Shown here piece by piece: positions 2,184 to 52,883 of a stretch of 64,000 bases of DNA. Position numbers and translations under genes: made by a program. Positions within the stretch are counted from its first letter, which is position 1. The number at the start of each line of letters is the position of its first letter. Source of the stretch: Candidatus Parcubacteria bacterium (GTDB lineage Bacteria; Patescibacteriota; Patescibacteriia; Patescibacteriales; UBA12465); contig AP029158.1 of assembly GCA_037076615.1 (NCBI GenBank), positions 636,299 to 700,298 of the forward strand. The letters run 5' to 3'. The notes under the pieces are model-generated. The model worked only from the letters and a program-made list of their open reading frames with translations. It searched no databases and was not told where the DNA came from.

Positions 2184-2185
2184 TT

Positions 2186-3583: not shown

Positions 3584-3681
3584 AAGCCCCAGAAACCGCT
3601 GGGTTTTTTAAATATTTTTCTTTACTTTTTATTAAAGTTTTATTAGGGGAAAATTAAAGTCACTTAGTCTATAATAATTAT

Positions 3682-4224
3682 ATGAAAATCGTTATTGGTT
3701 TAGGCAACCCCGGAAAAGAATATGCCGCTAATCGCCACAACGTTGGTTGGATGGCGCTTGACCGTTTACTGGGGCCGGTAAAATGGGAGGACAATAAACG
3801 CCTGCGCTGCCAGATCTATCGACAAGGCGATTACTTGTATGCTAAGCCGCAAACCTTTATGAATAATTCCGGGGAAGCAGTCAGAAAAATTCTTAGCTAT
3901 TACCAGCTGCTACCTAAAACTTTAGGGATTTTTAAAAAGACGGCCGCTGATTTAAGTGAAGTGCTGCTAGTAATTCATGATGATATTGATCAGAGTTTAG
4001 GACGCTACCGATTGACTAATGATTCTGGTAGTGGTGGCCATAACGGAATCAAATCAATTATTAATCATTTAAAAACCCAAAAATTTAAACGATTAAAAAT
4101 TGGTGTGGCGAATGAGAAATTGCGCCACCAGATTCCCGCCGAACGATTTGTCTTAACTAATTTTTCCACGGCGGAAAAAGAGATTCTAAATGAAACTATC
4201 GATCGCGCTCTTAAGGAAATGTAG
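3682..4224 (+). CDS. pth: peptidyl-tRNA hydrolase
   Basis: MKIVIGLGNPGKEYAANRHNVGW N-terminus, FMNNSGEAV, GGHNGIKS motifs. Confidence 0.93.
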   Translation: MKIVIGLGNPGKEYAANRHNVGWMALDRLLGPVKWEDNKRLRCQIYRQGDYLYAKPQTFMNNSGEAVRKILSYYQLLPKTLGIFKKTAADLSEVLLVIHDDIDQSLGRYRLTNDSGSGGHNGIKSIINHLKTQKFKRLKIGVANEKLRHQIPAERFVLTNFSTAEKEILNETIDRALKEM

Positions 4225-33660: not shown

Positions 33661-33671
33661 CAAGAAGCGAA

Positions 33672-33705
33672 AAACGACTCAAACGGAATCTTGGGTCGTT
33701 TTTTA
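33672..33705 (+). terminator. terminator after tRNA-Cys
   Basis: Stem ACGACTCAA/TTGGGTCGT followed by TTTTTT. Confidence 0.65.
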
Positions 33706-34280
33706 TTTTATAAAATTAAAAAAACTAAGACTTTTTATTTTAATCGAAACTGTGGATAAGTTGTGATTTTCCAGGTGAAGGAATTAAGTTAAGTCCACTC
33801 TGTAGTGGACTTTAGACTGGGGAAAGGGACTTTTTTATCCCCTTGTCAAATAAAAATATTTATTTAATATTAGTTAAAAATTATCGTTTTTGCCCAAGTT
33901 TTCAACATTTTGCGCTTGAGACTTGCCACTAGTTTTGAAAAATGTTAGAATATACACATAAATAGTTCTTTAATTTATTTACTGTAACCCGTTATCTTAT
34001 CAGCGTCAGAATGATAAACGCTTATAGAGCCAGTCTATTCAATAAAGATTCGATCAATTTCTACGATTAAATGTTTATTAAATCACTGGCTAAGTTACGG
34101 TCAATAAAAAGTTTCTTAATCTGACCAGAAACAAAAAACCGCTAAGCAATTTAGCGCCAAAATAACAATCAGAGGCTCCCGACCACGAAATCATTTTATG
34201 CCCAACGCATAACCGGTCTTAAGAGCCTCTTTTTATTTTTACTAAAATCTGCTTAAATAGAATTTAATAGTTTTTAGTTT

Positions 34281-38705: not shown

Positions 38706-40085
38706 ATGATTTACTTGCTGTTAGCGAGCCTGGCCTTTCTTATTTTGGCCTGGAAACGCTTGGATTTAGCCGTCTTACTAATTGTTGCCGGCACCCCGCT
38801 TTATTTGTGGCGCGGTCAGTTAGCGGGCCTGCCGCTGACTTTTTTAGAGGTTATGATTTTAACGGCCTTTGCCGTTTGGCTTCTAAAAGATGGTCCTCAT
38901 TTTAAAACTCTCTTAAAAAAGGATTCGGAGCGAACGTCCTACCCCTTCCGCTGGGAAATTATTGCCGTTCTTTTGGTTTCTTTTGCCGGAGTGATTGTCG
39001 CTCAAGTTAGCCCGGCGGCCCTGGGCATTTTTAAAGCTTATTTCTTTGAACCGCTCTTACTCTTCATTTTAATCATTAATTTATTTTCTTCTCCAGCCGG
39101 GCGAAAAAAAATTATTGGCGCCTTAGCAATTTCCGCTTTAGCCGTTTCTATCTTTGCCATCTTCCAACAACTGACTGGTCTTTTTATTGCCAACCCTTTT
39201 TGGCAGGCCGCCGGCAGCAGAAGGGCCACTTCTTTTTTTCCTTATCCTAATGCCGTCGGCTTATTTCTCGCCCCTTTGGTGCTAATTTTTCTCGGTCACT
39301 TAATTAATTATTGGCGAGAACGTTCTTGGGCGTGGCGCATTTTTTATCTTTTAACCAGCTTAACTGCTGTAGCCGCGATGGTGGCCGCTCAATCTGAGGG
39401 CGCGCTCGTAGGGCTAATGGCCGGGCTCGGAATCTTTGCCCTTTTAGTTAATAAAAAAGCACGGCTAATTACAATTATCTCCGGGATGCTCTTAGCGCTC
39501 GTGATTTGGTTTACGCCGCCGGCAAAAGATTTTGTCTTAACTAAAGTTTTACTAAAGGATTTATCGGGCCAAATTCGCCGCCAGCAATGGAGCGAAACGA
39601 TGTTAATGTTAAAAGACGGCCGCTTAATTACTGGCGCCGGATTAAGTGCTTATCAGGAGGCGATTACCCCTTATCACCAAGATGGGATTTGGATTAAAAC
39701 TGATGACCCCAATTGGCTACATGATATAATGTTCACTCCCGGCTTTCGAGAAAAAATGTGGCAGCCGACAGAAATTTATTTATACCCGCATAATATCGTT
39801 TTAAACTTTTGGAGTGAGCTTGGTATTTTTGGCGCCCTAATATTTCTTTGGATAATTGCCAAAGCCTTGGTAATGACGCTAAGATTGTCCCGGAAAAAAG
39901 ATGATTCAGAACGCTACCTGGCCCTAGGGATTTTTGGAGCGCTGGTAACTTTAACTGTTCATGGCTTAGTTGATGTCCCCTATTTTAAAAATGATCTCGC
40001 TGTCCTTTTTTGGATTTATTTAGCCCTAATTGGCGGCCTAACCTTAAAATCAAATGGAAAAAATCTTACAAAAAATAATCGCTGA
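38706..40085 (+). CDS. O-antigen ligase/polymerase (Wzy_C) family membrane protein
   Basis: About 10-12 TM helices; large loop followed by YPHNIVLNFWSELGIFG, typical of the family. Confidence 0.7.
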   Translation: MIYLLLASLAFLILAWKRLDLAVLLIVAGTPLYLWRGQLAGLPLTFLEVMILTAFAVWLLKDGPHFKTLLKKDSERTSYPFRWEIIAVLLVSFAGVIVAQVSPAALGIFKAYFFEPLLLFILIINLFSSPAGRKKIIGALAISALAVSIFAIFQQLTGLFIANPFWQAAGSRRATSFFPYPNAVGLFLAPLVLIFLGHLINYWRERSWAWRIFYLLTSLTAVAAMVAAQSEGALVGLMAGLGIFALLVNKKARLITIISGMLLALVIWFTPPAKDFVLTKVLLKDLSGQIRRQQWSETMLMLKDGRLITGAGLSAYQEAITPYHQDGIWIKTDDPNWLHDIMFTPGFREKMWQPTEIYLYPHNIVLNFWSELGIFGALIFLWIIAKALVMTLRLSRKKDDSERYLALGIFGALVTLTVHGLVDVPYFKNDLAVLFWIYLALIGGLTLKSNGKNLTKNNR

Positions 40086-40767
40086 ATCCGGTTTTTGTTC
40101 CCGCCGCCAAGCGGAAGCCGCCATAAAGCGTGGTGAAGTAAAAGTTAATGGCATCTTAGCTAAGCCCGGAGATCTAGCTTCGGCGACCGATAAAATTACC
40201 GTTCGCGGAAAAAGAATCGGTGCCCCCCAAGAAAAAGTTTATCTGAAACTTAATAAGCCTAAAGGTTATATCTGTACTAACCGTACTTTTGTTAACGAAA
40301 AAAATATTTTTTCACTCATTCCCGATAACATTAAAGGTTTATTTACAGTGGGACGTTTAGATAAAAACAGTCAAGGTTTAATTATCTTAACGAATGATGG
40401 TGATTTAACCTTAAAGTTGACCCATCCGCGCTCCGGGCATACTAAGGTTTATGAGGTAAAAACTCGACCAAACCTCGAAGAAAAAATTATTAAAAGAATT
40501 CAAAATAATTTTATTAGCGGCATCCCCTTTGAAGAAGAGGAAGGCATTGCTAAAGCTAAAAAAGTTACTTATTTAGGTGACGGCGCTTTTGAAGTGGTCT
40601 TAGCCGAAGGAAAAAAACGCCAGATTAGAAGAATGTTTGAAGCTTGTGGTGTAAAAGTTTCCAACCTTAAAAGAACAACTTTTGCCGGTTTAAAATTAGG
40701 CGGTTTAGCGGAAGGGCAATGGGGGTATTTAAGTAAAAGTGAGATTGCCAAACTGCGCGGCTTATAA
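40054..40767 (+). CDS. pseudouridine synthase, RsuA/RluB family (S4 domain plus catalytic GRLD)
   Basis: LQKIIAESGFCSRRQAE S4 motif; GRLDKNSQGLIILTNDG catalytic Asp motif; KKRQIRRM. Confidence 0.88.
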   Translation: MEKILQKIIAESGFCSRRQAEAAIKRGEVKVNGILAKPGDLASATDKITVRGKRIGAPQEKVYLKLNKPKGYICTNRTFVNEKNIFSLIPDNIKGLFTVGRLDKNSQGLIILTNDGDLTLKLTHPRSGHTKVYEVKTRPNLEEKIIKRIQNNFISGIPFEEEEGIAKAKKVTYLGDGAFEVVLAEGKKRQIRRMFEACGVKVSNLKRTTFAGLKLGGLAEGQWGYLSKSEIAKLRGL

Positions 40768-40785
40768 TAAGATAAGGGCGCTTAG

Positions 40786-40876
40786 GGAGGAGTCGCATAG
40801 CCCGGTTGATTGCGCCGCATTCGAAACGCGGTATACCCGTCAAAAGGTATCAAGGGTTCGAATCCCTTCTCCTCCG
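40786..40876 (+). tRNA. tRNA-Ser (anticodon CGA), class II with long variable arm
   Basis: Acceptor GGAGGAG/CTCCTCC, anticodon loop TTCGAAA (one A-C mismatch closing the stem), variable arm TATACCCGTCAAAAGGTAT, T arm AAGGG-TTCGAAT-CCCTT. Confidence 0.8.
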
Positions 40877-40877
40877 C

Positions 40878-40915
40878 ATATAAAAATACAACCCTTTAGG
40901 GTTGTATTTTTATAT
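40878..40915 (+). terminator. terminator after tRNA-Ser
   Basis: 17-bp perfect hairpin ATATAAAAATACAACCC-TTTA-GGGTTGTATTTTTATAT. Confidence 0.7.
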
Positions 40916-41115
40916 GATGATAATAAGGGTGAGAACCTTTAGGTTCGACTGCCGAGGATAGCGAGCGAAATGAAAACTCGGTTTTCATTTTCGAGCGACA
41001 CAGGCAGAAAAGGGCGGCTTGACCGCCCTGCTATCCCTGCCTCTCCGCAATTGACAAGGGTATGCCAAAATGGTATACCTTTTTGTTAAATGGATCCTTA
41101 AAAAAAATATTAAAA

Positions 41116-41492
41116 ATGAGAAAAGTGATAAACATCATTGCAATTAAAGATAAAAAATTCTTTTAGTAAGAAAAAGGGAGGCTTGGATTTTGCCTGGCGG
41201 CAAACCTAATTTAGGTGAAAGCGACGCAGAATGCCCCCTTAGAGAATTGTCTGAAGAATTGCCAAAATTATCAGTTATTGGAGATTTCAAACTTTATAAA
41301 AGTTTTACCGGTCAAACACCTCATCAAGGTGACATAGTAGAGGCGGTAGCATATTTTAGTAAAATTCAAAGGGAAATAAAGCCAGACAGGGAAATAAGTG
41401 AGGCTTTATGGACAAATAACTTTGATAACATTAAATTATCCGAAATAACTACAAAAATTATTAACCCCCTCTATAAAGATGGGTATCTTTAA
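41116..41492 (+). pseudogene. Nudix hydrolase gene interrupted by a frameshift in an A6 tract
   Basis: ATG at 41116 reads MRKVINIIAIKDKKFF-stop. Shifting one nt at the A-run 41152-41157 continues as KILLVRKREAWILPGGKPNLGESDAECPLRELSEEL, which carries the Nudix box G-x5-E-x7-REUxEE. Confidence 0.7.
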
Positions 41493-41498
41493 TTAATG

Positions 41499-41525
41499 CC
41501 GCTATTTTTAAAATAGCGGTTTTTT
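41499..41525 (+). terminator. terminator after the Nudix gene
   Basis: CCGCTATTTT-TAA-AAATAGCGG followed by TTTTTT. Confidence 0.7.
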
Positions 41526-41534
41526 ATTTTATTG

Positions 41535-41566
41535 AAACCGTTCCAACTATGCCCCACTCTCTCCGC
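41535..41566. repeat. left copy of a 32-bp imperfect direct repeat bracketing the island
   Basis: AAACCGTTCCAACTATGCCCCACTCTCTCCGC versus 47892-47923 AAACCATTCCAACTATGTCCCACCCTCTCCGC (29 of 32 identical by eye). Confidence 0.8.
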
Positions 41567-41786
41567 TAATTTTTATTAACTTCGCACACGCGGAGCGCGT
41601 GGTGGCTCTTTCCTAAGTCATACGCTCCGATTGCGTGGTGAAGCGAACAATGCGCGTCTCGCGCTCCCTTCGGTCGTAAACCAAAACCAAAAACTTTCTT
41701 ACCTATCCATTTTCGGCGGGGGGGGAGCCGCTTAAAAAATGAAAGGAAATCTTTTGGTTTTGTTTTCGTCGCTTCAGCGGTTGTTG

Positions 41787-41815
41787 TTTACAATCGCATA
41801 AAAATTCGTTATGAT
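41787..41815 (+). promoter_or_regulatory. sigma70-like promoter of the xre-ligase-MTase-MTase-peptidase operon
   Basis: TTTACA (41787-41792), 17-nt spacer, TATGAT (41810-41815), 64 nt upstream of the xre ATG. Confidence 0.5.
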
Positions 41816-41878
41816 TTAAATATGGAGATTAAATATTTTATATTATAGTCTATATATTAAATTATACAATAGGAAATT

Positions 41879-42076
41879 ATGAATATTGCAGATAACTTTA
41901 AAAAAATAAGAACAGAAAAGGGATACTCTCTTGAAAAGATCGCTCGTTTTGCTGATTTGTCTCTCAATACGGTTGTTAAAATTCAGAGTGGAGTCAATAA
42001 GAATCCAACCATTGAAACATTATCTAAAATCGCCAAGGCGCTTGGTGTTAGCGTTGGCGATTTGATACAAAAATAG
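41879..42076 (+). CDS. XRE/Cro-C1 family helix-turn-helix transcriptional regulator
   Basis: 65 aa; IRTEKGYSLEKIARFADLSLNTVVKIQSG...PTIETLSKIAKALGVSVGDL. Confidence 0.88.
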   Translation: MNIADNFKKIRTEKGYSLEKIARFADLSLNTVVKIQSGVNKNPTIETLSKIAKALGVSVGDLIQK

Positions 42077-42078
42077 TT

Positions 42079-43197
42079 ATGAAGAAAATAATTTCTGAAA
42101 ATATATTGAAAAATGCACGGAATGATGCAATTGAATTTGTAGAAGCAAATGGTCAAAACAGTTTGTATCCATCATTCTATGATGCAGATAGTTATGTTAA
42201 CGATTTGGTGAATGACAAATATTTTGCCGCACTAGCGATTGTCCGTCACTATGTAAAATTAATGAGTGATGCATACTGGTCAGATTTTGGTGCAGTCAAC
42301 ATAGATCTTTTTATGTTGACCTCAAGCGCCTCATCTCCTATGGGACCAGGATCCGACTCTGAGGTAATAAATATTCAATTTGGTAAATATCAAACCAATC
42401 TCACTGACTCATCACAATTTGGTTTTGAGCCGCTTATGTTTCATCTCGATAAAGCGTACTGTTATTTACCATCTATGCGGGGTGAGAATCCTGACGCTCG
42501 ACACATTAACCAGTTCTTTCATTGTGAAGCGGAAATAACCGGAACACTCGATAAATTGTTGCCGTCTGTTGAGAACTATGTACAGGCACTCGCCAGAATA
42601 TTTATAGCGCTCACACCAGTCGTGAAGCTTATTAGTATAGATTTTTTCAAAACAAAACAGGCGCTACAAAATATTATTAACGCTAAGAGTTTCAATAAAA
42701 AAACTTTTGATGAGGTGTATCAGTGGTTACAAAAAAATCCCTTATTCCACTCGGCAAATAATTTTGGAAGAAATATTACCAGCAGTGGCGAAATAGCGCT
42801 TGCTCAAGAGATGGGAGGTGAGCTACCTATCTGGCTCTGTAATTACGATAGGGATATCACTCCTTTTTACCAAAAACCAGATCCGCAAAATACAAATAGA
42901 GTTATAAATGCGGATCTGTTATTTCCACCAATTATAGAGGGCGGTTTCGGAGGTGAAATCGTTGGTTCTGGGCAACGACAAGATAATCCTGAAGAAATTA
43001 TCGAGTCTCTCAAAAGACAAAAAATCGATAGTGAACCTTATGAGTGGTACATCAATCTCCGCAAACAACCAAACTACAAAATAACATCTGGTTTTGGATT
43101 AGGAATAGAAAGATTTATTGCCTGGGCACTTGGATATTCTGATATTAAAAATGTCATTCATTATCCACGACTTAAAAATATTAAAACACTGCCATAA
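42079..43197 (+). CDS. class IIb aminoacyl-tRNA-synthetase-like ligase (AsnRS/AspRS-type catalytic core, no anticodon-binding domain)
   Basis: Motif 2 PSMRGENPDARHINQFFHCEAE (compare AsnRS FRAE...RHLAEFWMIEPE). Motif 3 GSGQRQ...SGFGLGIERFIAWALGYSDIKNVIHYPR. Only about 45 aa precede the core, so there is no OB fold. Confidence 0.8.
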   Translation: MKKIISENILKNARNDAIEFVEANGQNSLYPSFYDADSYVNDLVNDKYFAALAIVRHYVKLMSDAYWSDFGAVNIDLFMLTSSASSPMGPGSDSEVINIQFGKYQTNLTDSSQFGFEPLMFHLDKAYCYLPSMRGENPDARHINQFFHCEAEITGTLDKLLPSVENYVQALARIFIALTPVVKLISIDFFKTKQALQNIINAKSFNKKTFDEVYQWLQKNPLFHSANNFGRNITSSGEIALAQEMGGELPIWLCNYDRDITPFYQKPDPQNTNRVINADLLFPPIIEGGFGGEIVGSGQRQDNPEEIIESLKRQKIDSEPYEWYINLRKQPNYKITSGFGLGIERFIAWALGYSDIKNVIHYPRLKNIKTLP

Positions 43198-43198
43198 T

Positions 43199-44041
43199 AT
43201 GAAAAAAGAAATTTTCGATTCATTTTTTAATCCGTATGCAAAAACCGTTGACAAGGCGGCTGGCGTTAGCGCATTTTGGCGATTGTCAGATGAAATCATC
43301 ACAGAAATAATTAAACGAGAGATCGCGCCGTATTGTATAGACTTATCGCTTACTATGGACGCTGGTGGCGGCACAGGAAGGTGGGCAATAAAACTAAGTG
43401 GGGTTTTGAAAGGGAAAATTGTTGTATTCGATCGGTCGAAAGATATGTTAGCGAAAGCGTCAGAAAATATTAGTAGGAGTAGCACATCTGATCGCATTAG
43501 CATAGTAGAAGGAGACTTAACGCAGATAAATGAGTTCGCAGACAACAGTGTTGATAATATCGTGAGTATTTATAGCCCGCTTAGTTTTATCTATGAACAA
43601 GATAAGGCCGCAAAAGAATTGTTCCGTATTTTGAAACCAGGCGGTCGCATCCTTATAATGAGTCATAGTTACCATAACGCAGTAGCTTCTAAAATAAATA
43701 ACTATCGAGCTAGCGCAGAAGAATTACAAAAACTTGTAAATGAACAGGTGGTGAAATGGGCGCCACACGTTCCAGAATTAGTGACTCATTCAAAAGAGTC
43801 CATAGAAAAACTTTTTTCTGATGCAGGATTTCATATACATAAAACATACGGTGTGCCCGTGTTTGTCCAGCCTGGTTCAGAAGACTTTGACCCAGAAAAC
43901 GAAAAGAAAAGCGCTGTAAGCGCATACCTTGAAAACCCCGATGTATTTAAATCGGTATTTGAAATTGAAATGAGGTTTAATGCAAACGAAACAGTGGCAA
44001 ATCGAGGTATGAATATGTTTATGCTCGCAGAAAAGAAATAA
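43199..44041 (+). CDS. class I SAM-dependent methyltransferase
   Basis: Motif I MDAGGGTGRWA, LKPGGRILI. The ATG at 43199, one nt after the upstream stop, is preferred over the overlapping 43118 start in the ORF track. Confidence 0.8.
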   Translation: MKKEIFDSFFNPYAKTVDKAAGVSAFWRLSDEIITEIIKREIAPYCIDLSLTMDAGGGTGRWAIKLSGVLKGKIVVFDRSKDMLAKASENISRSSTSDRISIVEGDLTQINEFADNSVDNIVSIYSPLSFIYEQDKAAKELFRILKPGGRILIMSHSYHNAVASKINNYRASAEELQKLVNEQVVKWAPHVPELVTHSKESIEKLFSDAGFHIHKTYGVPVFVQPGSEDFDPENEKKSAVSAYLENPDVFKSVFEIEMRFNANETVANRGMNMFMLAEKK

Positions 44042-44042
44042 T

Positions 44043-44924
44043 ATGAAAAAAGATAAAATTTTAAAAGAATATCCTTGGCTTGCGAAGATAAATACCGTTG
44101 AAGATTACCTTCCTCCAGAGTATTACCAACACTTACTAAAACCATATATTTTTGGCGGAGTGTCAGATATTTCACTGCTTGGTAATTTCTTACATAATAA
44201 AAAACCTTTAAAGGTTCTGGAGCTTGGGTGTGGCAGTGGTAGAGCCTCAGATACTGCGGTTTCGATTATTCCTACTGCAGATTACACTTTTTCAGATCTC
44301 AGTGGCAGAATGCTCGAAGCTGCGAAACAGCATTTGCCCAAAAACTCAGCTTTTGTTATTTCTGATGCGGTTGATTTTATGGAGAACACTAATGATATAT
44401 ATGACTTAGTGTACACACTTTGGAGTTTTTCACATTCAACGCACCAGCATGTTCATCGGTTGGGCATAGAAAAAGCTGAGGATTACATTTCCTCCGTTAT
44501 CAAAAAGTTTATTCGTCAAAACATTACAAAGAATGGATCATTTTTCTTAATACATTTTGACTCACTCTCTCAGGAACAGAGTATTTTAATGAGACAATGG
44601 AAACGAGTATTTCCTACCTTTGCAAATATCGAGGAACAAAGTCCCTCAAAGCAATTCATCGACAGAACTTTATTGGAATTAGATACAAAAGGAGAAATTA
44701 CCCTATCTATCAATCACTTATGTGGTGATGCCATACATTACAAATCAGAAAATGAATTGCTGGAGACTTTTATGAATTTTCATCTTGAGACGTACTTCAA
44801 TAATTCATCACTTAATAAAAGTGTTATTGAGGACATAAAAGAACAAGCCTCAAAGTATCGTAATGAAGATGGTTCTTATGATATTACCCCTGGATGTTAT
44901 GTTTATTCATTTGTTAAAAATTAA
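44043..44924 (+). CDS. class I SAM-dependent methyltransferase (second, divergent)
   Basis: Motif I VLELGCGSGRAS, acidic FSDLS, post-I ISDAVDF; start is one nt after the upstream stop. Confidence 0.75.
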   Translation: MKKDKILKEYPWLAKINTVEDYLPPEYYQHLLKPYIFGGVSDISLLGNFLHNKKPLKVLELGCGSGRASDTAVSIIPTADYTFSDLSGRMLEAAKQHLPKNSAFVISDAVDFMENTNDIYDLVYTLWSFSHSTHQHVHRLGIEKAEDYISSVIKKFIRQNITKNGSFFLIHFDSLSQEQSILMRQWKRVFPTFANIEEQSPSKQFIDRTLLELDTKGEITLSINHLCGDAIHYKSENELLETFMNFHLETYFNNSSLNKSVIEDIKEQASKYRNEDGSYDITPGCYVYSFVKN

Positions 44925-44932
44925 AAAATACT

Positions 44933-45964
44933 ATGAAAAAACTTCAAAAATTGCAGAAAGGAGACAAGGTAGCAGTGTTGTCGCCATCGTTTGCGGCGCC
45001 TGCCATCTTTCCAAAAGTGTTTGAATTGGGGCTCCAGAGAATTCGCGACGAGTTCGGACTGGAGCCAGTGGAGTATCCAACCACAAGACAATTAAACGCA
45101 AGTGCTGAGGACCGCACTCTCGATATCATTGAAGCTTTTTCTGATCCAGAGATAAAAGCCGTAATTGCAAGTATTGGTGGAGATGATCAAGTGACCTATA
45201 TTCACAAAATGTCTCCAGAGGTATTTATAAAAAATCCCAAGCTGTTTTTAGGATACAGTGACAATTCACATCTTTGTAATTTTTTGTTTCAGCATGGAAT
45301 TCCATCGTATTACGGAGCTTGTGTGATGACACAATTTGCAATGCAGGGAGAAATGGACAGATACACGGTGGAAAATATTCGTCACGCTTTGTTTGATTCA
45401 GGCGAATACGAAATTAATCCTTCAAAAGAATATAATGAGATTGGTCTAAATTGGAAAGATGAAACACTGCTTGCAACAAGACGAACCTACGAAAAAAACA
45501 CGGGATGGATATGGGATGCTCCAGTGGACAGCGAAGGTATCTTATGGGGCGGGTGTTTAGAGTCAATTGATGATATGTTGCGTAACAATACACCAATCCC
45601 AAGTCTTAAAGAATTCGGAAATATTATTCTTATGCTCGAAACGTCGGAAGAAATACCTTCGCACGGATATGTGAGGCGAGTCATTCGCGCTTTGGGTGAA
45701 CGATACATATTGCAGAAGGTCCAAGGTATTTTTGTTGGACGGCCGAAAGCGTGGGAATTCGACAAACAATTCACCAAAGAAGAACGAACCATCTACACTA
45801 ATGAGCAACAAAAAACCATTCTTGAAACAGTGCGAACATACAACAAAAATATTCCTGTGGTACAAAATATGAATTTTGGTCATACAGATCCGCAGATACC
45901 AATGCCGTATGGAGGAAGGGTAAGAGTTGACTCAAACAAAAAGAGGGTCTTTGTTTACTTTTAG
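44933..45964 (+). CDS. peptidase S66 family (LD-carboxypeptidase / microcin C7 immunity MccF-like)
   Basis: GDKVAVLSPS N-terminus, nucleophile elbow LGYSDNSHL, MLETSEE, FGHTDP His motif; 343 aa. Confidence 0.8.
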   Translation: MKKLQKLQKGDKVAVLSPSFAAPAIFPKVFELGLQRIRDEFGLEPVEYPTTRQLNASAEDRTLDIIEAFSDPEIKAVIASIGGDDQVTYIHKMSPEVFIKNPKLFLGYSDNSHLCNFLFQHGIPSYYGACVMTQFAMQGEMDRYTVENIRHALFDSGEYEINPSKEYNEIGLNWKDETLLATRRTYEKNTGWIWDAPVDSEGILWGGCLESIDDMLRNNTPIPSLKEFGNIILMLETSEEIPSHGYVRRVIRALGERYILQKVQGIFVGRPKAWEFDKQFTKEERTIYTNEQQKTILETVRTYNKNIPVVQNMNFGHTDPQIPMPYGGRVRVDSNKKRVFVYF

Positions 45965-45966
45965 AA

Positions 45967-45996
45967 AAAGACCAGGAAATTAATTTCCTGGTCTTT
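45967..45996. terminator. bidirectional terminator between the convergent S66 peptidase and HisRS-like genes
   Basis: Perfect 30-nt palindrome AAAGACCAGGAAATT/AATTTCCTGGTCTTT. Confidence 0.75.
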
Positions 45997-47152
45997 AGCA
46001 GTCACCGTCCTTAAACAGTTTCTGCATTAGCTCTGCACCTATTCCAGAGGTAACCATCGCCTCGCGTTTGTTATCGAGTAGTTTCGCAGCCCAATCTACA
46101 GCTCCTCCATCCGCAATCTGAACCACATCGCCTTTTTGGTTGGTGGCAAAAATGTGGAAGCATAGATGCGGATAATAGCCCAACCCAGCTTTTCTATTGA
46201 AGTCAAAGCAGAATCGGACATCAGGATTAGTTGAACGAAGTGGTTTTATAATACCTTGCTCAATGTGCGCAAAGTATCTAACTCGATCAGCGAGACCGTT
46301 ATCCCTGAACATTGTCGGCTTTAGGTCGTCTGCAGTTTCAACTTCTCTTGGAAACTGAACTTGATATTCCGTGAACAAGTCGAAGTCGTCATTAAGTGAA
46401 TTTCGCAAGACATCTTCACGAGAAAGTTTGATCGCTTCTATCAACTGATCAAGGAATCGCATATCAGAAACCTTGACAGTAATGTCTGACGATTTGTACC
46501 CTTCTCTATGTAGGACAGAGATAGTATTCAGCAATGTCGCTATATGTTTCTGCAGCGAAGGAATTGCAAACCCACCCATTTCTGACCTGTTGGGCCCACC
46601 AGAGCAAAGAGCAAAAAGGTTGAAATGTTGCATATACCCCTTGCTCTTGTCGAACGGCTGTAGCCGCAGAACACGACCCGATGTACTAATGTGTATAGCA
46701 CTCTTATCTTTTCGGGTCACATTCCGTTTTCTCCTTAATGAGCACTCTAACGCAAGCTGGCTTGTTAGATCGCTCACAACTTCCGATCCTCGTATCGAGG
46801 AAAGAGTGTTGTTTTGGCTAACCATGCTCAATACTGCGTTGAGACCAAAAGGTGCAATGGGAGAAGTTTGAACGCTCTCGAACGTAGACCGTGTCGCCTC
46901 GTGACATGCGAGGGCAAACTTGTACAGCTCGATTTGAGTTATCGAACTAATCCCGAGAAATTCTTGCCTCCTTTCGTACTCTTGGAGTAGCTCTGCTGGT
47001 TTTCTGACCATCGCCCTATTCTTGAATGCATGCACCAGAATAGGCTGTAGGCGACGCATCGGTGTTGTCGACAGAATCTCAAGGAGGTTGGTCACACCAA
47101 GCTCCTTGGAGATGCTTTGAATCATTTTTTCTTCCGAACTCTTGGAATCCAT
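45995..47152 (-). CDS. class IIa aaRS-like protein (HisRS/HisZ-like core, no anticodon-binding domain)
   Basis: SSIRGSEVVSDLTSQLA (compare LRPEGT...), RVLRLQPFDKSKGYMQHFNLFALCSGG (motif-2-like), GLGYY (compare GLDYY), IADGGAVDW...AMVTSGIGAELM (GGRYD/motif-3-like, Arg absent). Similarity judged by eye only. Confidence 0.45.
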   Translation of the reverse strand: MDSKSSEEKMIQSISKELGVTNLLEILSTTPMRRLQPILVHAFKNRAMVRKPAELLQEYERRQEFLGISSITQIELYKFALACHEATRSTFESVQTSPIAPFGLNAVLSMVSQNNTLSSIRGSEVVSDLTSQLALECSLRRKRNVTRKDKSAIHISTSGRVLRLQPFDKSKGYMQHFNLFALCSGGPNRSEMGGFAIPSLQKHIATLLNTISVLHREGYKSSDITVKVSDMRFLDQLIEAIKLSREDVLRNSLNDDFDLFTEYQVQFPREVETADDLKPTMFRDNGLADRVRYFAHIEQGIIKPLRSTNPDVRFCFDFNRKAGLGYYPHLCFHIFATNQKGDVVQIADGGAVDWAAKLLDNKREAMVTSGIGAELMQKLFKDGDC

Positions 47153-47312
47153 TTTTTACCTCCTTTTTAGCTGTTAAAGAACGAGACCTCAAGACCATCT
47201 TGAAGCTTAATGCGAACATAGCACAATTATGTTCTTTTGTCCAGAGCAAGTCACTTTCCTTGAACCATGAATTAAAGGAGTAGATATTAGCTTATCATCA
47301 GTTAAAAGAACA

Positions 47313-47816
47313 TTGGTTAGAAATAATTTAATCAGATCTAGAAGTCCTTGGAAAAAATGGCATTATTCTTTGCCTCGTCCAATATCTGAAAAACTGGGTG
47401 ATTTACTACAAATTGATACAGTTCATTTTTTAACTAGTGATGGTGAAAGATTTTATGTCTATACTATAATTGTTTTATATTCTCGTTGGGCTTATGCTAA
47501 AGTTGTCAAAAAGATAAGTGCTGATAGAAGTGCCCGATTCGTGAAAGAAGCTAAGAGAAAATCATCTTTCAATTTTGAAATGACTCGATCTGATCATGGT
47601 CCAGAATTTAGTTCTTGGTTCACTAATGAATTAATTAGATTAAATATATCTCATAGACATTCTAGAATCAGAAAGTGTAACGACAATGCTCATATTGAAA
47701 GATTTAATCGGACTATTCAGGAAGAATGTTTTGGAATAGATAGACCAGTTAGTTATGATAGATATTTATCTTTAATTAATTATTATCAAGACTATAATAA
47801 GCATAATTTTATTTAA
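47313..47816 (+). mobile_element. 5'-truncated DDE (rve, IS481/IS3-like) transposase remnant
   Basis: Integrase core LQIDTVHF...SDHGPEF...NAHIERFNRTIQEE (D, D, E). The N-terminal HTH domain is missing and the in-frame upstream sequence hits a stop at about 47284. Confidence 0.75.
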
Positions 47817-47891
47817 TATAAGACAAAAAATTTCAGAATAATTAATTTATCTCGAAAAAGCCAATGAAAAATTAAAATTATTATTTGATTA

Positions 47892-47923
47892 AAACCATTC
47901 CAACTATGTCCCACCCTCTCCGC
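47892..47923. repeat. right copy of the 32-bp imperfect direct repeat
   Basis: See 41535-41566; lies about 75 nt after the transposase remnant. Confidence 0.8.
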
Positions 47924-47980
47924 CAGAAGAACTAAGTATCGGTATAATCCGAGTACTTAAATTGGGGTATTTAAGCTAAA

Positions 47981-48913
47981 ATGAACAATGTGGAAAAGTT
48001 TGAACAGATAAAATCTAGTCATTTAGAAAATCAAGAGTCGTTAAAAAACCTGCAACGGCAACTGCATTTTGATGGTGTTGAATTATTACCCGGACAGGAA
48101 TTTCCTATAAATATTCACGTTCGAAAAGAACCGATTGAAATTAAAGACGGAGATAGTTTAGAATTATTGTCACTTATGGAAGAAGCTGAAAAGTTAGCAG
48201 AATTTCCTGAGGAAGAACGTCTTACGGCTTTAATAGAACTAGTACGCAGTAAACTCAAATACCCATATCCTGATGTTATGGAGGCTTCGGGAGCAGAGAA
48301 TCCTGAATTGAAAGAATGGCTTGAAAAAAGATTTGGGCTAAATCCGAGTATTTGGAAACTTGAACTTAACGATTTACTAAAAAATGGATTTGGCGATTGT
48401 AAGATTATGGCTGCAGCTTATCTTATAGCGGCGCAATCTGCAAAAATTAAAGGTATTTATGCAAATAGCGGAGTCAGTCTTAAAAACATTGTTAGATCTG
48501 ACATCAGCAAGCCGATATTTAAATCGGTAGAACTAGATCGGGATACAAATTCAGCCCACGAATGGGTTAAAATTCAATTATCAGACGGGAGATTGATTCC
48601 AGTCGACCCAACAACCAATATGGTTGGCTTAGGAGAAATGATAGCGGTTTTTAGGCAAGCTGGTTATAACGTTCCAGTTACTTTCAAATCTGAAGTTCCT
48701 TCTGATTTAGAGCTGGAACGCGATGGTGCCGCTTTCGCTCCAGGAGAAACAGAAAAAAGACTGAATTTAAAGTTAAAAATTGGATCAGTAATGAGTTTTG
48801 GTGAGGGCGCATCTACAAAAAGATTGAAAACTGATAAATTTTCTGGAGATGTAGATGTAAAATTTAATTCAAATACAGATTCTAAAAGTACAAACCTTGA
48901 TTTTTTGGATTAA
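47981..48913 (+). CDS. transglutaminase-like cysteine protease fold protein
   Basis: Putative Cys-His-Asp triad in NGFGDCKIMAAAYL ... SAHEWVKIQLSDGRLIPVDPT. Confidence 0.55.
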   Translation: MNNVEKFEQIKSSHLENQESLKNLQRQLHFDGVELLPGQEFPINIHVRKEPIEIKDGDSLELLSLMEEAEKLAEFPEEERLTALIELVRSKLKYPYPDVMEASGAENPELKEWLEKRFGLNPSIWKLELNDLLKNGFGDCKIMAAAYLIAAQSAKIKGIYANSGVSLKNIVRSDISKPIFKSVELDRDTNSAHEWVKIQLSDGRLIPVDPTTNMVGLGEMIAVFRQAGYNVPVTFKSEVPSDLELERDGAAFAPGETEKRLNLKLKIGSVMSFGEGASTKRLKTDKFSGDVDVKFNSNTDSKSTNLDFLD

Positions 48914-49099
48914 CCTATGGGTGACCCGAGTACCTCAAATGGGTCGAGCGAAATGTGCTAAAATATTCTTACAAGGCCTCATCTCGGTGATACTTAATTC
49001 AGTTAGGCCGCTAAATTAAAACTTAGTAAAATAAGGGTCTTTGCTGATTAATCCGTCAGCATCAAAGCAATCGACTAACTAATTCCCGTTTTTCAAAAT

Positions 49100-49447
49100 A
49101 TGCGAATTTGGGACATACCAACAAGATCGCTCTGTCGCAAACATCTTCTCGCCGAACATCGGGAACTGCATGGACTTTGGAATATTCTCACAAAACATGG
49201 CGGTAAAGGGGGCTATTCCAGGCACCCAGAAACGCTTCGTTGGATTGGCAAAGAAAAGGCTTTATATCTTAGACACGAAGAAGAAGCGAAAGAGATTATC
49301 AGGAGAGGTTATAACCACAAGAGCCCCTTGGATTTTAAATTGGCGGCCGGAAGCAAAGACAAACAAGATATAAAAATTGATACAATTGCCAAACAAAAAG
49401 AACTCCTGAATAATAAGCCCTGTGATTGTAAATTTACGCCTCGCTAA
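49100..49447 (+). CDS. pyrimidine-dimer DNA glycosylase (T4 endonuclease V / DenV family)
   Basis: MRIWDIP..LCRKHLLAEHRELHGLW resembles T4 endoV LADQHLMAEYRELPRVF; also RRGYNHKSPL. Confidence 0.65.
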   Translation: MRIWDIPTRSLCRKHLLAEHRELHGLWNILTKHGGKGGYSRHPETLRWIGKEKALYLRHEEEAKEIIRRGYNHKSPLDFKLAAGSKDKQDIKIDTIAKQKELLNNKPCDCKFTPR

Positions 49448-49508
49448 AAAAATCGCCACTGACGAGGACTGAGCTAGTGTTTAAATTATTATTTAATATT
49501 TAAAAAAT

Positions 49509-49826
49509 ATGAAAAAAAATACCCTTATTAAACAAGGCCTTCTCTACGCCTTTGGGGTCGTTGTCTATGTTTCACTCTTAAGCCTCTTTATGGAAAACGC
49601 TTCCGGCTGGTTCGGCGAAGAGGATGCTCGCGTAATAACTCCGGTAGCCGTTCTTTTGCTCTTTATTTTCTCTGCCTTAATCACTGGCGGCCTGGTTCTA
49701 GGAAAACCAATTTTACTTTATCTTGAGGGGAAGAAAAAAGAGGGCCTCGATCAATTATTATCTACCGGCATTAGTTTGTTTGTCTACCTCCTGATTGTTT
49801 TTTTGATATTGTGGTTACAAAAATAA
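49509..49826 (+). CDS. small membrane protein (three predicted TM helices)
   Basis: 105 aa, three hydrophobic stretches; no recognisable motif. Confidence 0.5.
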   Translation: MKKNTLIKQGLLYAFGVVVYVSLLSLFMENASGWFGEEDARVITPVAVLLLFIFSALITGGLVLGKPILLYLEGKKKEGLDQLLSTGISLFVYLLIVFLILWLQK

Positions 49827-50051
49827 ACATTAATCCTATTTTTTAATAACCCCTAAAAAACACCCTCAGCGGTGTTTTCGTTTTTGTAAAAACACCTTAA
49901 GTGCGGTACAATTTAATCAGCGCCGGCAACGGCACCTATCTTTTGAGAATGTTACTTTCAGAAATAACTAGGGCCTACTATAGTATCAACCCCTTATAAG
50001 CGCTGGCCGCTTTGATTAATAAAATATTTATAAATTATAAAAAATAAAAGT

Positions 50052-50945
50052 ATGAAAAAACTAGGCACTCTCCTTATTTTATTGATTGTTTTTTTAGTTG
50101 CCTCTTTTATTATTATCGAGCAAAAAAACAACAGTAAAGTAACTGTTCTCTGGCCCAATGGCGGGGAAACTATCGAGGCGGGATCAACTCAAATAATTAA
50201 TTGGGGAACAAAAAATATCCCCGAAGGAAACAAAATTTCAATTTCTATTAGACGCGTTCTCGCCACTGGTGAGGTAGTTGAAGGACAAGAATTTGATCCG
50301 CTACTTTTTGTCAACCTAGAAAATACTGGCACCATCGAGTGGGAAGTGTCTGAGAGTTATCCTGAAGGTGATTATATTTTAGAAATTAACAGCTACGAAT
50401 CCTTGCCGATGACTAACCCAATTAGCGATGAAAGTGACACTGCTTTTAAAATTACTAAAAGTAATAGCAGTGCCGTCGCCGACGACAGCTGGTCAACTTA
50501 CAAAAACGAAAATTTTTCTTACCAAATAAAATACCCAACCAGCCTAACCTTAAAAGAGTTCTTAAAAACAGGAACTGGGGGAAGCTTTATTATAAATGAC
50601 GAAGACCCTATTGACTGTCTTACCGTCTCAGCGAGAACCGCCGTTGGCCCGAAAGCCGAATTAGCTTTTGACGATTATGTTAAGGAGGCAGCGATTCAAG
50701 AAATTCAAGGTGTGACTGAATTAAATTCCATTGAAACTATCACCACTAATACCGGCGATTCGGTTTACAAAACTACCTGGAGTTATAAAAAGCCCGGCGA
50801 CGATCAAGATAAAAATTTAGCAATTACTTATCTTGAAGGACCGGGAAGTGTTGGCGCTGAAAATTATAAAACTATTCAATTAATTTTAAATGATTCTCGC
50901 TGTGAAGACGTCTACAACCAAATGCTTTTGACTTTCGGTAAATAA
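50052..50945 (+). CDS. signal-anchored extracytoplasmic protein, unknown function
   Basis: N-terminal hydrophobic anchor; Ig-like VTVLWPNGGETIEAGSTQIINWGT segment. Confidence 0.55.
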   Translation: MKKLGTLLILLIVFLVASFIIIEQKNNSKVTVLWPNGGETIEAGSTQIINWGTKNIPEGNKISISIRRVLATGEVVEGQEFDPLLFVNLENTGTIEWEVSESYPEGDYILEINSYESLPMTNPISDESDTAFKITKSNSSAVADDSWSTYKNENFSYQIKYPTSLTLKEFLKTGTGGSFIINDEDPIDCLTVSARTAVGPKAELAFDDYVKEAAIQEIQGVTELNSIETITTNTGDSVYKTTWSYKKPGDDQDKNLAITYLEGPGSVGAENYKTIQLILNDSRCEDVYNQMLLTFGK

Positions 50946-50964
50946 AAAATTACTAATAGCCAAT

Positions 50965-51002
50965 AAAAAACCCTCCACATTATGTGAAGGGTTTTGTTTT
51001 TT
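50965..51002. terminator. bidirectional terminator between convergent genes
   Basis: AAACCCTCCACA-TTATG-TGAAGGGTTT (one mismatch) flanked by an A-run and a T-run. Confidence 0.6.
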
Positions 51003-51013
51003 AAAATTACAAT

Positions 51014-51832
51014 TTACAATACCGTTTCACCGTCCCACTCTTCGGTAACGTCGAAGGTGATTTTGGCACCACCAAGATCCGAGCCATCACTGTTACCACC
51101 GAGGAGTTTAGTAATTACTTTATATCTCCGGTTTGGTTGGATATTAACAGTGCGAGAATAGTGATCATAATCTTTGTTAACTAAATCAGAGTGAATCGTA
51201 ACCTCAATCTTTACGTTTTTCGCCGGAAAAACGAAGTTAAAGTCGTTATCACCGGTAACCGCCGTCCATTTTTTGGCTGGGGCAAACTTCCAAGTAGTTA
51301 GATCTAAGGAAGTTGGTGAGGAGATACTAGCTTTAAGCGTAATCCAGGGAAATAATTTTAAGCCGTCACTTTTGATAATTTCGATTGCCGAAACCATCCT
51401 CTTTAACACTATCGTGGCTTCCGTGCCCGTTTCTAAAACATTGAGCGCGTAATCGGTGTGATAAAAATGTTGAGAATTTAAATCTGTAGTTAGCAAAAGC
51501 GTTTTATAGCTCTCCGAACAAACAAAGCGGCAATTATAATTGCCCGGGAAAAGCTCCAAATTCAAGCCCTGACTTCTCTGACAATCGCCTTCTAGGGCAA
51601 TTTGTCCGGAAGTAGCCTCGGTAATTACATAATGCAAATTTTGCGGAGCCGCCGTTTCACTCATGGCCGATCTTAAACCAACTTCTTCCACTACTAATCC
51701 ACTAAAACTAAATTTAACGGGAACTTTTTGATTCAGCTCCGGAATTTCACCCTTAGAACAAGATACTAAAAATACTGAACCAATAAACATCAACATCAAC
51801 AGTACATTTCTCATCGCATTGTTTTTTTTCAT
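51014..51832 (-). CDS. putative lipoprotein, unknown function
   Basis: Signal peptide with lipobox (VFLVSC-SKGE); beta-rich sequence. Confidence 0.55.
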   Translation of the reverse strand: MKKNNAMRNVLLMLMFIGSVFLVSCSKGEIPELNQKVPVKFSFSGLVVEEVGLRSAMSETAAPQNLHYVITEATSGQIALEGDCQRSQGLNLELFPGNYNCRFVCSESYKTLLLTTDLNSQHFYHTDYALNVLETGTEATIVLKRMVSAIEIIKSDGLKLFPWITLKASISSPTSLDLTTWKFAPAKKWTAVTGDNDFNFVFPAKNVKIEVTIHSDLVNKDYDHYSRTVNIQPNRRYKVITKLLGGNSDGSDLGGAKITFDVTEEWDGETVL

Positions 51833-52032
51833 TACTTAAATTATTTTTTTCTAGACCAGAATTAGTCGTAGCTAAAAAACCTCAAATACTTCAGGCCTTA
51901 TAGCTACTACTAAAAATCCAGCACTTGTTAAAGATCGTAAAAAACCTTGTTCAAGATAACAAGACAGAAAAATTTTGTCAATAGCTAGACCGCTTTCAAG
52001 CACCTTTAATCCTACCGCACAGCGGTTAGAAT

Positions 52033-52062
52033 AAAAAACCTCCGATTAGGGAGGTGTTTTTA
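52033..52062 (-). terminator. terminator after the LUD-domain gene
   Basis: Minus strand CCTCC-CTAATC-GGAGG followed by TTTTTT. Confidence 0.6.
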
Positions 52063-52066
52063 TATT

Positions 52067-52729
52067 TTAATAGCCTAGAATTTCGTTTACTATTAATAGG
52101 TGAAGCTTTCGACCCATAAAATCCGGTTCTCGATTTAAAAGTAAGACTTTAGAAGGATAAGTGCCAACACCTTGGGTGGCTTGCATCCGCTCTCCCTCTA
52201 AAGGGATTACGTACTCCTCTAAACGCTTCCAGGCCTCACCAATTGTCGGTACAATCTTTTGGGCGCCGACAACTAAAACTAAATTAGGAGAAGTAGACAC
52301 CAGATGCGGTAATTGGCTCCCGGAGTTAGAAGCGATTAGAAGCTCTCCGTCTTCCGTTAAAGCATGGACCGAACCCAGATAAAATTCGGATAAAATCGCT
52401 TGTTGTCTCATCTTTTGCTGCTCAACCGGATCGCTAATCGCTAAAATATCAGCATGTAAATTTTTCCAACCGTGTTCACCGCTTTTTAAATAATTAACAA
52501 AACCAATTTCTTCTAAAGTACGGGAAGAACCATTCATCACCGAAGATCCGGCCGGAATTAATTCTTTTACTCTAGAGAAGGCCGCTTCTTTAGTCTCTAT
52601 TAGTTCCGGTAAAAATCCGCGCCCCTTTAAAGAGTTTATTGTTTTAGCAACTGTCTCTTTAGAGGCTAAATTATTGTAAGTCATAATAATTTTATTTATA
52701 TTTTTTAAAAACTCCGTCCTATTATACAC
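52067..52729 (-). CDS. LUD-domain (LutC/YkgG-like) protein
   Basis: 220 aa; ...GSSRTLEEIG...LGSVHALTEDGELLIASNSGSQL...LVVGAQKIV pattern of the LUD family. Confidence 0.65.
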   Translation of the reverse strand: MYNRTEFLKNINKIIMTYNNLASKETVAKTINSLKGRGFLPELIETKEAAFSRVKELIPAGSSVMNGSSRTLEEIGFVNYLKSGEHGWKNLHADILAISDPVEQQKMRQQAILSEFYLGSVHALTEDGELLIASNSGSQLPHLVSTSPNLVLVVGAQKIVPTIGEAWKRLEEYVIPLEGERMQATQGVGTYPSKVLLLNREPDFMGRKLHLLIVNEILGY

Positions 52730-52809
52730 CCCCTGGGGGTATTAGTCAAGAGCAAGACTTTTGGTCAACTCCTAATAAGAAGCTCAGGAATAAATCCTGA
52801 GCTAAAAGG

Positions 52810-52883
52810 CGGAATGGACGGGACTCGAACCCGCGACCTCCTGCGTGACAGGCAGGCGCTCTAACCAGCTGAGCTACCACTCC
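52810..52883 (-). tRNA. tRNA-Asp (anticodon GUC)
   Basis: Minus strand GGAGTGGTAGCTCAGCTGGTTAGAGC..., anticodon stem CCTGC/GCAGG, loop CTGTCAC, T-loop TTCGAGT. Confidence 0.88.

Follow-up and report, generated by a model that had tools for sequence, protein, structure and literature searches.

A probable array of gene cassettes at the 3′ end of tRNA-Ser(CGA) in a Candidatus Parcubacteria genome and its possible integron-like nature

Genes and repeats behind tRNA-Ser(CGA)

The window analysed here, a 64-kb stretch of contig AP029158.1 from a Candidatus Parcubacteria bacterium (Patescibacteria, ultra-small), contains a tRNA-Ser(CGA) gene followed by a GC-rich segment with no open reading frame (ORF), a Nudix gene, a synthetase-like gene cluster, a transposase-family fragment and an ORF of no recognised family, with short repeats between them (Table 1; all coordinates are window positions). 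An earlier note on this DNA had described the tRNA, three repeat signals behind it and, between the repeats, a frameshifted Nudix gene, an aminoacyl-tRNA synthetase-like operon and a truncated transposase; all were recovered, the tRNA by ARAGORN and Rfam, the repeats in the window sequence, and the genes by Pfam and NCBIfam. The stretch from 40879 to 49011 is probably an array in which four mobile gene cassettes have been captured at the 3′ end of this tRNA gene.

The tRNA-Ser(CGA) gene ends in GGTTCGAATCCCTTCTCCTCCGCA, and the putative crossover core CTCCGCA, common to the tRNA end and the cassette ends, lies at 40872–40878. The first repeat signal consists of GGTTCGA (40942–40948) and ATCCCTGCCTCTCCGCA (41033–41049), separated by an 84-nucleotide (nt) hairpin-rich stretch that folds at −49 kcal/mol (z = −3.4). 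The other two signals are the copies of a 32-nt repeat (41535–41566 and 47892–47923), identical at 29 of 32 positions, as previously reported; the pair even extends to 46 nt at 87% identity in a repeat search (41521–41566 versus 47878–47923). When up to three mismatches were allowed, a degenerate 32-nt pattern matched the window twice, both times at these copies (chance expectation 0.00). The 8-mer CTCTCCGC was found four times in the window against 2.4 expected, which is not significant alone. Within the window, the likeness of the repeat ends to the tRNA acceptor, claimed in the earlier note, could thus not be assessed; it reached significance only through other genomes, where 16 nt are identical to the end of a tRNA-Ser(TGA). 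GC content (0.27–0.47 across the array, about 0.38–0.45 in the flanks) was not decisive. A further 25-nt direct repeat (84%) links the 3′ end of RluB (40718–40742) with 47960–47984, upstream of the ORF at 47981, and may be due to chance.

Table 1. Features of the putative cassette array and of the adjoining variable stretch.
Feature	Position	Strand	Basis
tRNA-Ser(CGA), anchor and proposed attachment site	40786–40877	+	ARAGORN; Rfam tRNA 40786–40876, 46.8 bits
Cassette 1, 171 nt, ORF-less, GC-rich	40879–41049	+	sequence, fold z = −3.4
Cassette 2 (Nudix)	41050–41566	+	Pfam NUDIX, terminator scan, repeat
Cassette 3, 6357 nt	41567–47923	+	Pfam, NCBIfam, fold z = −4.4, repeat
GC-rich structured leader of cassette 3	about 41580–41800	+	folding
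XRE HTH gene, cassette 3	41879–42076	+	Pfam
AsnRS-core/AsnA-like class II synthetase paralogue, cassette 3	42079–43197	+	Pfam, NCBIfam
Two S-adenosylmethionine (SAM) methyltransferases, cassette 3	43199–44041 and 44043–44924	+	Pfam
S66 LD-carboxypeptidase/MccF-like protein, cassette 3	44933–45964	+	Pfam
Weak HisRS-like protein, 385 amino acids (aa), cassette 3	45995–47152	-	Pfam
IS481-type rve fragment, N-terminally truncated, cassette 3	47313–47816	+	Pfam, NCBIfam
3′ site of cassette 3 (repeat copy 2)	core 47892–47923	+	repeat search
Cassette 4, ORF of 310 aa (47981–48913, no family match)	47924–49011	+	L049 blastn
Remaining hypervariable stretch: Pyr_excise, three unknown ORFs, LUD-domain gene	49012–52883		synteny
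tRNA-Asp, far border of hypervariable stretch	52808–52883	-	

Presence and absence of cassettes between strains and relatives

Contigs of other samples that carry the RluB gene tended to end just behind tRNA-Ser, two Logan contigs doing so exactly after ...CTCCTCCGCA; comparison with contigs L040, L049 and L045 attributes these breaks to variable cassette content. L040, a JGI contig of the same species, carried an extra 915-nt unit between the tRNA and window base 40879, in the order tRNA end ...CTCCTCCGCA, then GTAAGAAACAG, a hairpin, GGGAGATTGAACTTTGGAACGG, an Exo_endo_phos gene and AAAGCCGTTCCAAGTGTGTCCCACCCTCTCCGCA, followed by TATAAAAATACAACCC. The inserted unit ends in ...CCCACCCTCTCCGCA, after which TATAAAAATAC... 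continues as the window does from 40879 onward; only CTCCGCA is repeated at both of its ends, it holds one intact gene and no recombinase, and its 3′ end is a third version of the 32-nt repeat. Relative to this cassette the window has the empty junction, CTCCTCCGCA joined to TATAAAAATAC, and both forms were present in samples SRR36594266/67 and JGI 3300060823.

The far end of the array was set by L049, from a close relative (RluB 94% identical in aa; about 90% nt identity), which aligned by blastn to 39954–40877 and then directly to 49008–49157, the block 40878–49011 being absent. The end of tRNA-Ser in L049 is joined straight to window 49008, and the empty site anticipated in related genomes was thus found. 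By this junction, the ORF at 47981–48913 belongs to a fourth cassette, whose 3′ site is eroded; the repeat copies that had been taken to delimit the array are real, and its end lies at 49011, not at 47923. Together, the base-exact empty and occupied sites in L040 and L049 support the serial site-specific integration at a tRNA 3′ end that the earlier note had proposed.

The Exo_endo_phos cassette of L040 (6139–7077) was also found in L045 (29–968; GCA_964604915.1), at 93.3% identity over 942 nt, in an unrelated context behind a tRNA-Ser with a TGA-type 3′ end; the same cassette stands behind different tRNA-Ser genes. Homology between the two copies stops exactly at ...CTCTCCGC, where the unrelated right flanks begin, and on the left continues into the similar 3′ ends of both tRNA genes.

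On a larger scale, the core order RluB, tRNA-Ser(CGA) ... tRNA-Asp (reverse strand), dksA-like gene and lspA was kept in L050 (RluB 66%) and L064 (63%), and the ~5 kb between these core flanks held entirely different genes in each. Relatives thus do not share one repeat-free gene order, as might be expected if the island were no island at all; gene content differs between the same core flanks. The hotspot of L050 held two motif sites and that of L064 none. Within the window, no cassette site was recognisable 3′ of 49011, either in the intergenic sequences read up to tRNA-Asp or with a hidden Markov model (HMM) of the motif. The Pyr_excise gene beside the array (endonuclease V-like, 49100–49447) has a ~190-nt internal deletion in L049 (10970–11080), where 49157 is joined to 49346. 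UDG-family glycosylases lie in the matching variable regions of L050 and L036/L038, and DNA-repair glycosylases appear, from these sequences, to be recurrent cargo. Elsewhere in the window, the ~620 nt 3′ of tRNA-Cys (33662–34280) contain several hairpins and no ORF of at least 60 aa, and are unusually long for a compact genome.

Such remodelling could in principle proceed without a recombinase, through natural transformation and homologous or microhomology recombination between short boxes, with the direct repeats promoting deletions. The L049 junction, at which only CCGC is common to the tRNA and the 3′ site of cassette 4, and the L064 hotspot, remodelled without the motif, are in keeping with this, and repeats of 16–33 nt could support RecA-independent deletion. 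However, the Exo_endo_phos cassette has only 7 nt of identity at its ends and a right flank unrelated to that of the donor, unlike the outcome of two-sided homologous replacement, and a motif of constant strand behind tRNA-Ser, together with a 32-nt site kept in distant genomes, points to a protein-recognised site. We therefore regard recombinase-free exchange as quite improbable.

The conserved cassette-end site and the build of the cassettes

A degenerate motif scan recovered 11 loci from JGI metagenomes and four from GTDB genomes, one of which, in a GC-rich actinomycete, looks like a chance match; the comparative evidence as a whole comprises a few dozen contigs, several of them collected by the motif search. 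Across 13 non-redundant loci, an HMM built from the copies distinguished 20 full-length variants, with the consensus (A)AACCRTTCCAASTRYGYCCCACYCTCTCCGC(A) and the boundary motif AAACCRTTCCAASTRYGYCCCACYCTCTCCGC. The last 16 nt of the motif equal the 3′ end of tRNA-Ser(TGA); in the cassette sites, the last 7–16 nt repeat the sequence of a tRNA-Ser in its T-stem and acceptor 3′ strand. The site was conserved well beyond this tRNA-identical part (TTCCAA..TG.CCCAC), which argues for selection rather than decay. Judged from these alignments, the repeats appear to be a selected site that in its 3′ half mimics tRNA-Ser (T-stem and acceptor 3′ strand), and not the degenerate, decayed copies of this particular tRNA end for which they had been taken.

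Every motif copy behind an identified tRNA-Ser lay on the strand of that tRNA, and the anchors were tRNA-Ser(CGA) in the window, L040 and L050, tRNA-Ser(TGA) in L036, and tRNA-Ser(GCT) in L035. In L036 the tRNA ends in GTGGGTTCGAATCCCACCCTCTCCGCA and is followed by one HD gene and, 790 nt on, by a motif that ends in the identical 16 nt, TCCCACCCTCTCCGCA. To the left of the site there was always the end of some cargo gene, which was not conserved. Every copy of the repeat that was found marks the edge of a cassette, in several cases behind a tRNA-Ser, which sets it apart from a dispersed element unrelated to integration. A kindred suggestion, that the motif does not move and is a regulatory or terminator-associated element resembling repetitive extragenic palindromes, with a chance likeness to tRNA and unrelated insertions and deletions nearby, would suit its position, always intergenic and usually followed by a terminator-like hairpin. 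Against this, the two independent insertions or deletions seen in L040 and L049 end exactly at the last bases of the motif, homology between cassettes of different genomes ends at this same base, 16 nt are identical to tRNA-Ser(TGA), the motif stands directly behind three tRNA-Ser isoacceptors, and the 64-kb window holds just two copies, both in the array. This explanation is very improbable, and the junction data already largely refute it.

Loci with several sites ranged from two copies (L050) and three (L029) to arrays of five to seven, with cassettes of 0.17–6.4 kb that mostly held one gene. The L047 array, for example, runs S51 peptidase, unknown gene, Exo_endo_phos, adh_short and HIT with at least six sites; most of its genes are followed by an intact or degenerate motif, and most units open with a hairpin. 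Cargo included Nudix, HD, GNAT, Fic and NYN proteins, a glyoxalase, DNA-repair glycosylases and exonuclease III-like enzymes. In L029 (reverse strand, 1882–4159), a full-length glmS gene (glutamine amidotransferase and SIS domains) lies between two cassette sites; to judge by its position, a normally core gene such as this can probably travel as cargo. At L065 7194–11400 and L047 10748–11680, several genes are packed closely into one block, or only fragments of the sites are left (e.g., AGTCGTTCCAACTACGCCCCCTCCGCA). Fusion of cassettes after site loss is known for integron cassettes, and by analogy the reduced sites suggest that neighbouring cassettes have fused in the same way.

At their 5′ ends, 19 of the 28 junctions had a stable hairpin with a T-run immediately to the right of the site; the hairpin sequences were not conserved between cassettes. 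A terminator scan flagged 41498–41520 in the window and 7087–7106 in L040, the latter corresponding to the window hairpin at 40878–40915. After the hairpin, about 12 of the 28 junctions (~40%) carried a 5′ box (GGGAG / TTGAAC / TTTGGAACGG; in full form GTAGGGAGATTGAAC(T)TTTGGAACGG), which repeats the 3′ site imperfectly and in inverted orientation (reverse complement of the site, GGTGGGACATAGTTGGAACGG); several junctions form long imperfect palindromes centred on the hairpin. With a −10-like hexamer 3′ of it, the 5′ box is a candidate promoter, for which a consensus scan gave no clear confirmation and returned TTGGAA-16-TAGAAT as an alternative.

Within the window, cassette 1 comprises a terminator-like hairpin (40878–40915), a GGGTGAG / GGTTCGAC box (40927–40949), the hairpin-rich insert and the 3′ site GCTATCCCTGCCTCTCCGCA (41030–41049), directly after which the hairpin of the next cassette starts. 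The same build was found in L038 (436–645), L047 (7170–7381) and L028, where GGGATTCGAAC is followed by a GC-rich insert and AAATCCC(A/C)(C/G)CCTCTCCGC. What had been read as a split pseudo-copy is not a broken attachment site but a complete, distinct and recurrent ORF-less cassette type. A tmRNA or permuted tmRNA was considered for 40851–41049 and rejected, the only match to tmRNA_permuted being below threshold (15.5 bits, E = 1.4) and ARAGORN returning none. T-box, signal recognition particle and other Rfam families had no match in the two structured window stretches or the homologous ORF-less cassettes, in which microRNA ‘hits’ in Rfam reflect only the long palindrome. A common RNA fold was likewise rejected, as the inner parts align poorly and the L038 copy (z = −1.5) folds no better than shuffles. 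The AGCGAGCGA box common to these cassettes was not clearly enriched (19 matches against 11.5 expected; 4 of 100 shuffles reach 19).

Cassette 2 contains a 5′ hairpin (41056–41084), the Nudix gene (41116–41492), a terminator (41498–41520) and, as its 3′ site, repeat copy 1 (core 41535–41566). The Nudix gene is frameshifted in the window, where a run of A6 stands against A7 in L040 with its intact ORF of 140 aa. Other contigs carry 125-aa versions of this gene, and the frameshift could be phase variation or a sequencing error. The leader of cassette 3 (41567–41870) is non-coding and strongly folded (−83 kcal/mol, z = −4.4), with a long hairpin between 41678–41698 and 41746–41766 and a G8 run; it had no Rfam match, T-box included, and was seen in this species only. 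The cargo behind it (41879–47152), carried by all strains seen, is an unusual cluster whose class II synthetase paralogue is without an anticodon-binding domain, and it could serve production of, or immunity to, an aminoacyl-nucleotide-type compound. Among the cassettes examined, the rve fragment was found in cassette 3 only. Cassette 4 ends in a degenerate 3′ site ...TTCAGTTAGGCCGC at 49011 (eroded end ...TTAGGCCGC). An AAGAAC..GTATCGG box, 3′ of the motif at 47924, recurs after motif copies in L035, L036 and L047, before unrelated genes, and may represent a second kind of 5′ end among the cassettes. A short repeat, CCGAGTAC(T/C)T(A/C)AAAT(T)GGG, flanks the ORF at 47981–48913 on both sides (47940–47960 and 48920–48945).

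Search for a recombinase, proposed mechanism and relation to known systems

No tyrosine or serine recombinase was found by Pfam among the island ORFs and ten further window ORFs or in the precomputed Pfam lists for 32–64 kb, nor in the ORFs flanking the motif sites of L025, L029, L030, L032 and L035, in those scanned at the anchors and arrays of L036–L038, or in the precomputed Pfam lists of related loci. Searches by tblastn with XerD, lambda Int and Hin over 417 kb of related loci returned none either, and none of the ~30 cassettes examined held an integrase or a recognisable fragment of one. A phage or plasmid vector was rejected, as the motif and the 5′ box had 0 matches in IMG/VR, where matches of the tRNA-Ser 3′ 22-mer were confined to phage tRNA genes and the ends of proviruses, with no repeats. 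No autonomous integrase element with the same site was present among the 11 metagenome and 4 genome loci with the motif, or in IMG/VR. With no recombinase in the cassettes, arrays or anchor neighbourhoods examined, and with the motif absent from IMG/VR, the enzyme must act from elsewhere.

Several kinds of transposon were also considered. A transposon with terminal inverted repeats was rejected, since the inverted boxes are subterminal and a hairpin beyond them is part of the inserted unit; so was a DDE-type insertion sequence or miniature inverted-repeat transposable element, as the only transposase-like ORF is the truncated IS481-type fragment, in one cassette only, which is cargo or debris and not the recombinase of the array. 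IS200/IS605 and IS91 elements are similar in their orientation-specific insertion, here 3′ of CTCCGCA, and in the left hairpin; the hairpin sequences are not conserved, and no such transposase was among the Pfam results.

The earlier note had explained the missing enzyme by decay, with no integrase remaining. In that account the units are classical tRNA-targeting islands or prophages, integrated in tandem, that lost their own integrases and most of their genes. Integration at a tRNA 3′ end with a direct repeat is a hallmark of such islands, and tycheposons have been described in tandem arrays that contain partial-tRNA repeats as well as decayed remnants (10.1101/2020.12.28.424599); the truncated transposase-family gene at the end of cassette 3 and the eroded distal sites (cassette 4; L047 10748–10774) could be remnants of the same kind. 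However, the polymorphic unit seen within a single population measures 915 nt and holds one intact gene, which leaves no room for an integrase, and loss of integrases by decay is thus not supported. Independent decay would not keep the 3′ boundary at which a cassette recurs, at 93% nt identity, in another genome; the rve fragment belongs to an IS481-type DDE transposase, not to a tRNA-site integrase; and the absence of integrase fragments from some 30 cassettes and the conservation of the site beyond its tRNA part point the same way. Decayed islands are thus an unlikely source of the array, and the cassettes look natively integrase-less and integron-like.

Under the mechanism that we propose, a circular cassette would recombine with the tRNA end inside CTCCGCA, or inside up to 16 nt at TGA-type tRNAs, through the predicted circle junction ...GTGTGTCCCACCCTCTCCGCA/GTAAGAAACAGTTCTAATATTAG. 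The tRNA would be kept intact and the hairpin of the cassette would become its new terminator; the older occupant would be pushed distally, so that the array would grow outward from the tRNA and its distal sites would erode or its cassettes fuse. The enzyme, encoded elsewhere, would most likely be a tyrosine recombinase. More broadly, and more tentatively than for the array itself, it is a serious possibility that Patescibacteria hold an undescribed integron-like gene-capture platform, with tRNA-Ser as attachment site, tRNA-mimicking cassettes and a recombinase encoded elsewhere, and that this platform is a main route of accessory-gene exchange in these ultra-small genomes. The recombinase of such a platform may be structure-specific, as long imperfect palindromes cross the junctions and GC-rich cassettes without an ORF recur.

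Several points weigh against the cassette-array reading. No recombinase gene was found in any cassette or locus examined, in a limited search whose Pfam part covered submitted ORFs and those with precomputed hits and whose tblastn part used three query proteins; the circular cassette junction was not seen in any contig. The inverted 5′ box is present at about 12 of 28 junctions and, within the window, in cassette 1 only. The loci are few and were collected through the motif itself, and the L029 and L047 arrays show no tRNA in the available DNA. The L049 difference could be a microhomology deletion, since the site of cassette 4 shares only CCGC with the tRNA, and the L064 hotspot, variable without the motif, indicates that other processes also remodel the locus.

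Among known systems, integrons share with these loci the arrays in one orientation, the mostly single-gene, recombinase-less cassettes each ending in a recombination site, insertion at one fixed point with newcomers proximal, the occurrence of ORF-less cassettes, junction-spanning imperfect inverted repeats, eroded sites and fused cassettes. Unlike in integrons, there is no intI beside the array (the upstream genes are RluB, Wzy_C, EF-P, S18, SSB and S6), attachment is at the 3′ end of tRNA-Ser and not at attI, and the site is a tRNA-end mimic without RYYYAAC / GTTRRRY boxes, with a crossover at CTCCGC(A) and not at G/TT; inverted repeats (CCGTTCCAA / TTGGAACGG) are present at the junctions, but the crossover lies outside them. 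The cassettes also seem to be supplied with a terminator and promoter-like boxes of their own, in place of a common Pc promoter. Of the features that define an integron, three are absent: an intI beside the array, attC boxes and the integron crossover point.

The resemblance to tRNA-targeting islands lies in the insertion at the 3′ end of an intact tRNA, the direct repeat of 7 nt (CGA) or 16 nt (TGA) at the far boundary, and presence/absence with precise junctions (L040 versus the window, the window versus L049); unlike in such islands, no element-encoded integrase lies beside the attachment site in any cassette examined. In Prochlorococcus, whose genomes are streamlined and without ordinary mobile elements, tycheposons likewise integrate at tRNA 3′ ends, with partial-tRNA repeats between neighbours, and newcomers push older ones distally (10.1101/2020.12.28.424599). 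The ssrA islands of Dehalococcoides (PMC3146451) are other tandem tRNA/tmRNA islands. Tycheposons and similar islands are kilobases long with their own integrase, whereas the cassettes measure 0.17–6.4 kb with none in any copy examined, and here the conserved site reaches beyond the tRNA-identical part.

Cis-mobilizable elements are modules flanked by att sites and without recombination genes, which rely on the integrase of a related element that occupies the same tRNA or att site (ICESt1-type tandem accretion). The cassettes are likewise flanked by such sites and without recombination and transfer genes, but are far smaller, form long arrays and occur across several genus-level lineages; this is the nearest formal category, and a helper element was not found among the loci searched. 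The pdif modules of Acinetobacter plasmids are small cargo modules with short dif-like XerC/XerD sites in alternating orientation, used by a housekeeping recombinase. Both kinds of unit would be small, bounded by short sites and moved by a recombinase encoded elsewhere, whereas the sites described here are chromosomal direct repeats that mimic a tRNA end.

Patescibacteria (the Candidate Phyla Radiation) show much horizontal transfer (PMC12455944), although their genomes are tiny and few mobile elements can be recognised in them. The main text of that gene-exchange survey does not mention tRNAs, integrases, recombinases or cassettes, and no published description of tRNA-Ser cassette arrays in Patescibacteria was found by full-text literature searches. 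If the proposed platform is real, tRNA-Ser-anchored cassettes would account for the movement of single accessory genes from one lineage to another, and would constitute a second, independently evolved ‘integron logic’ in bacterial genetics. The cassette site is a short, searchable DNA signature with which the flexible gene pool of the phylum may be mapped and the recombinase found.

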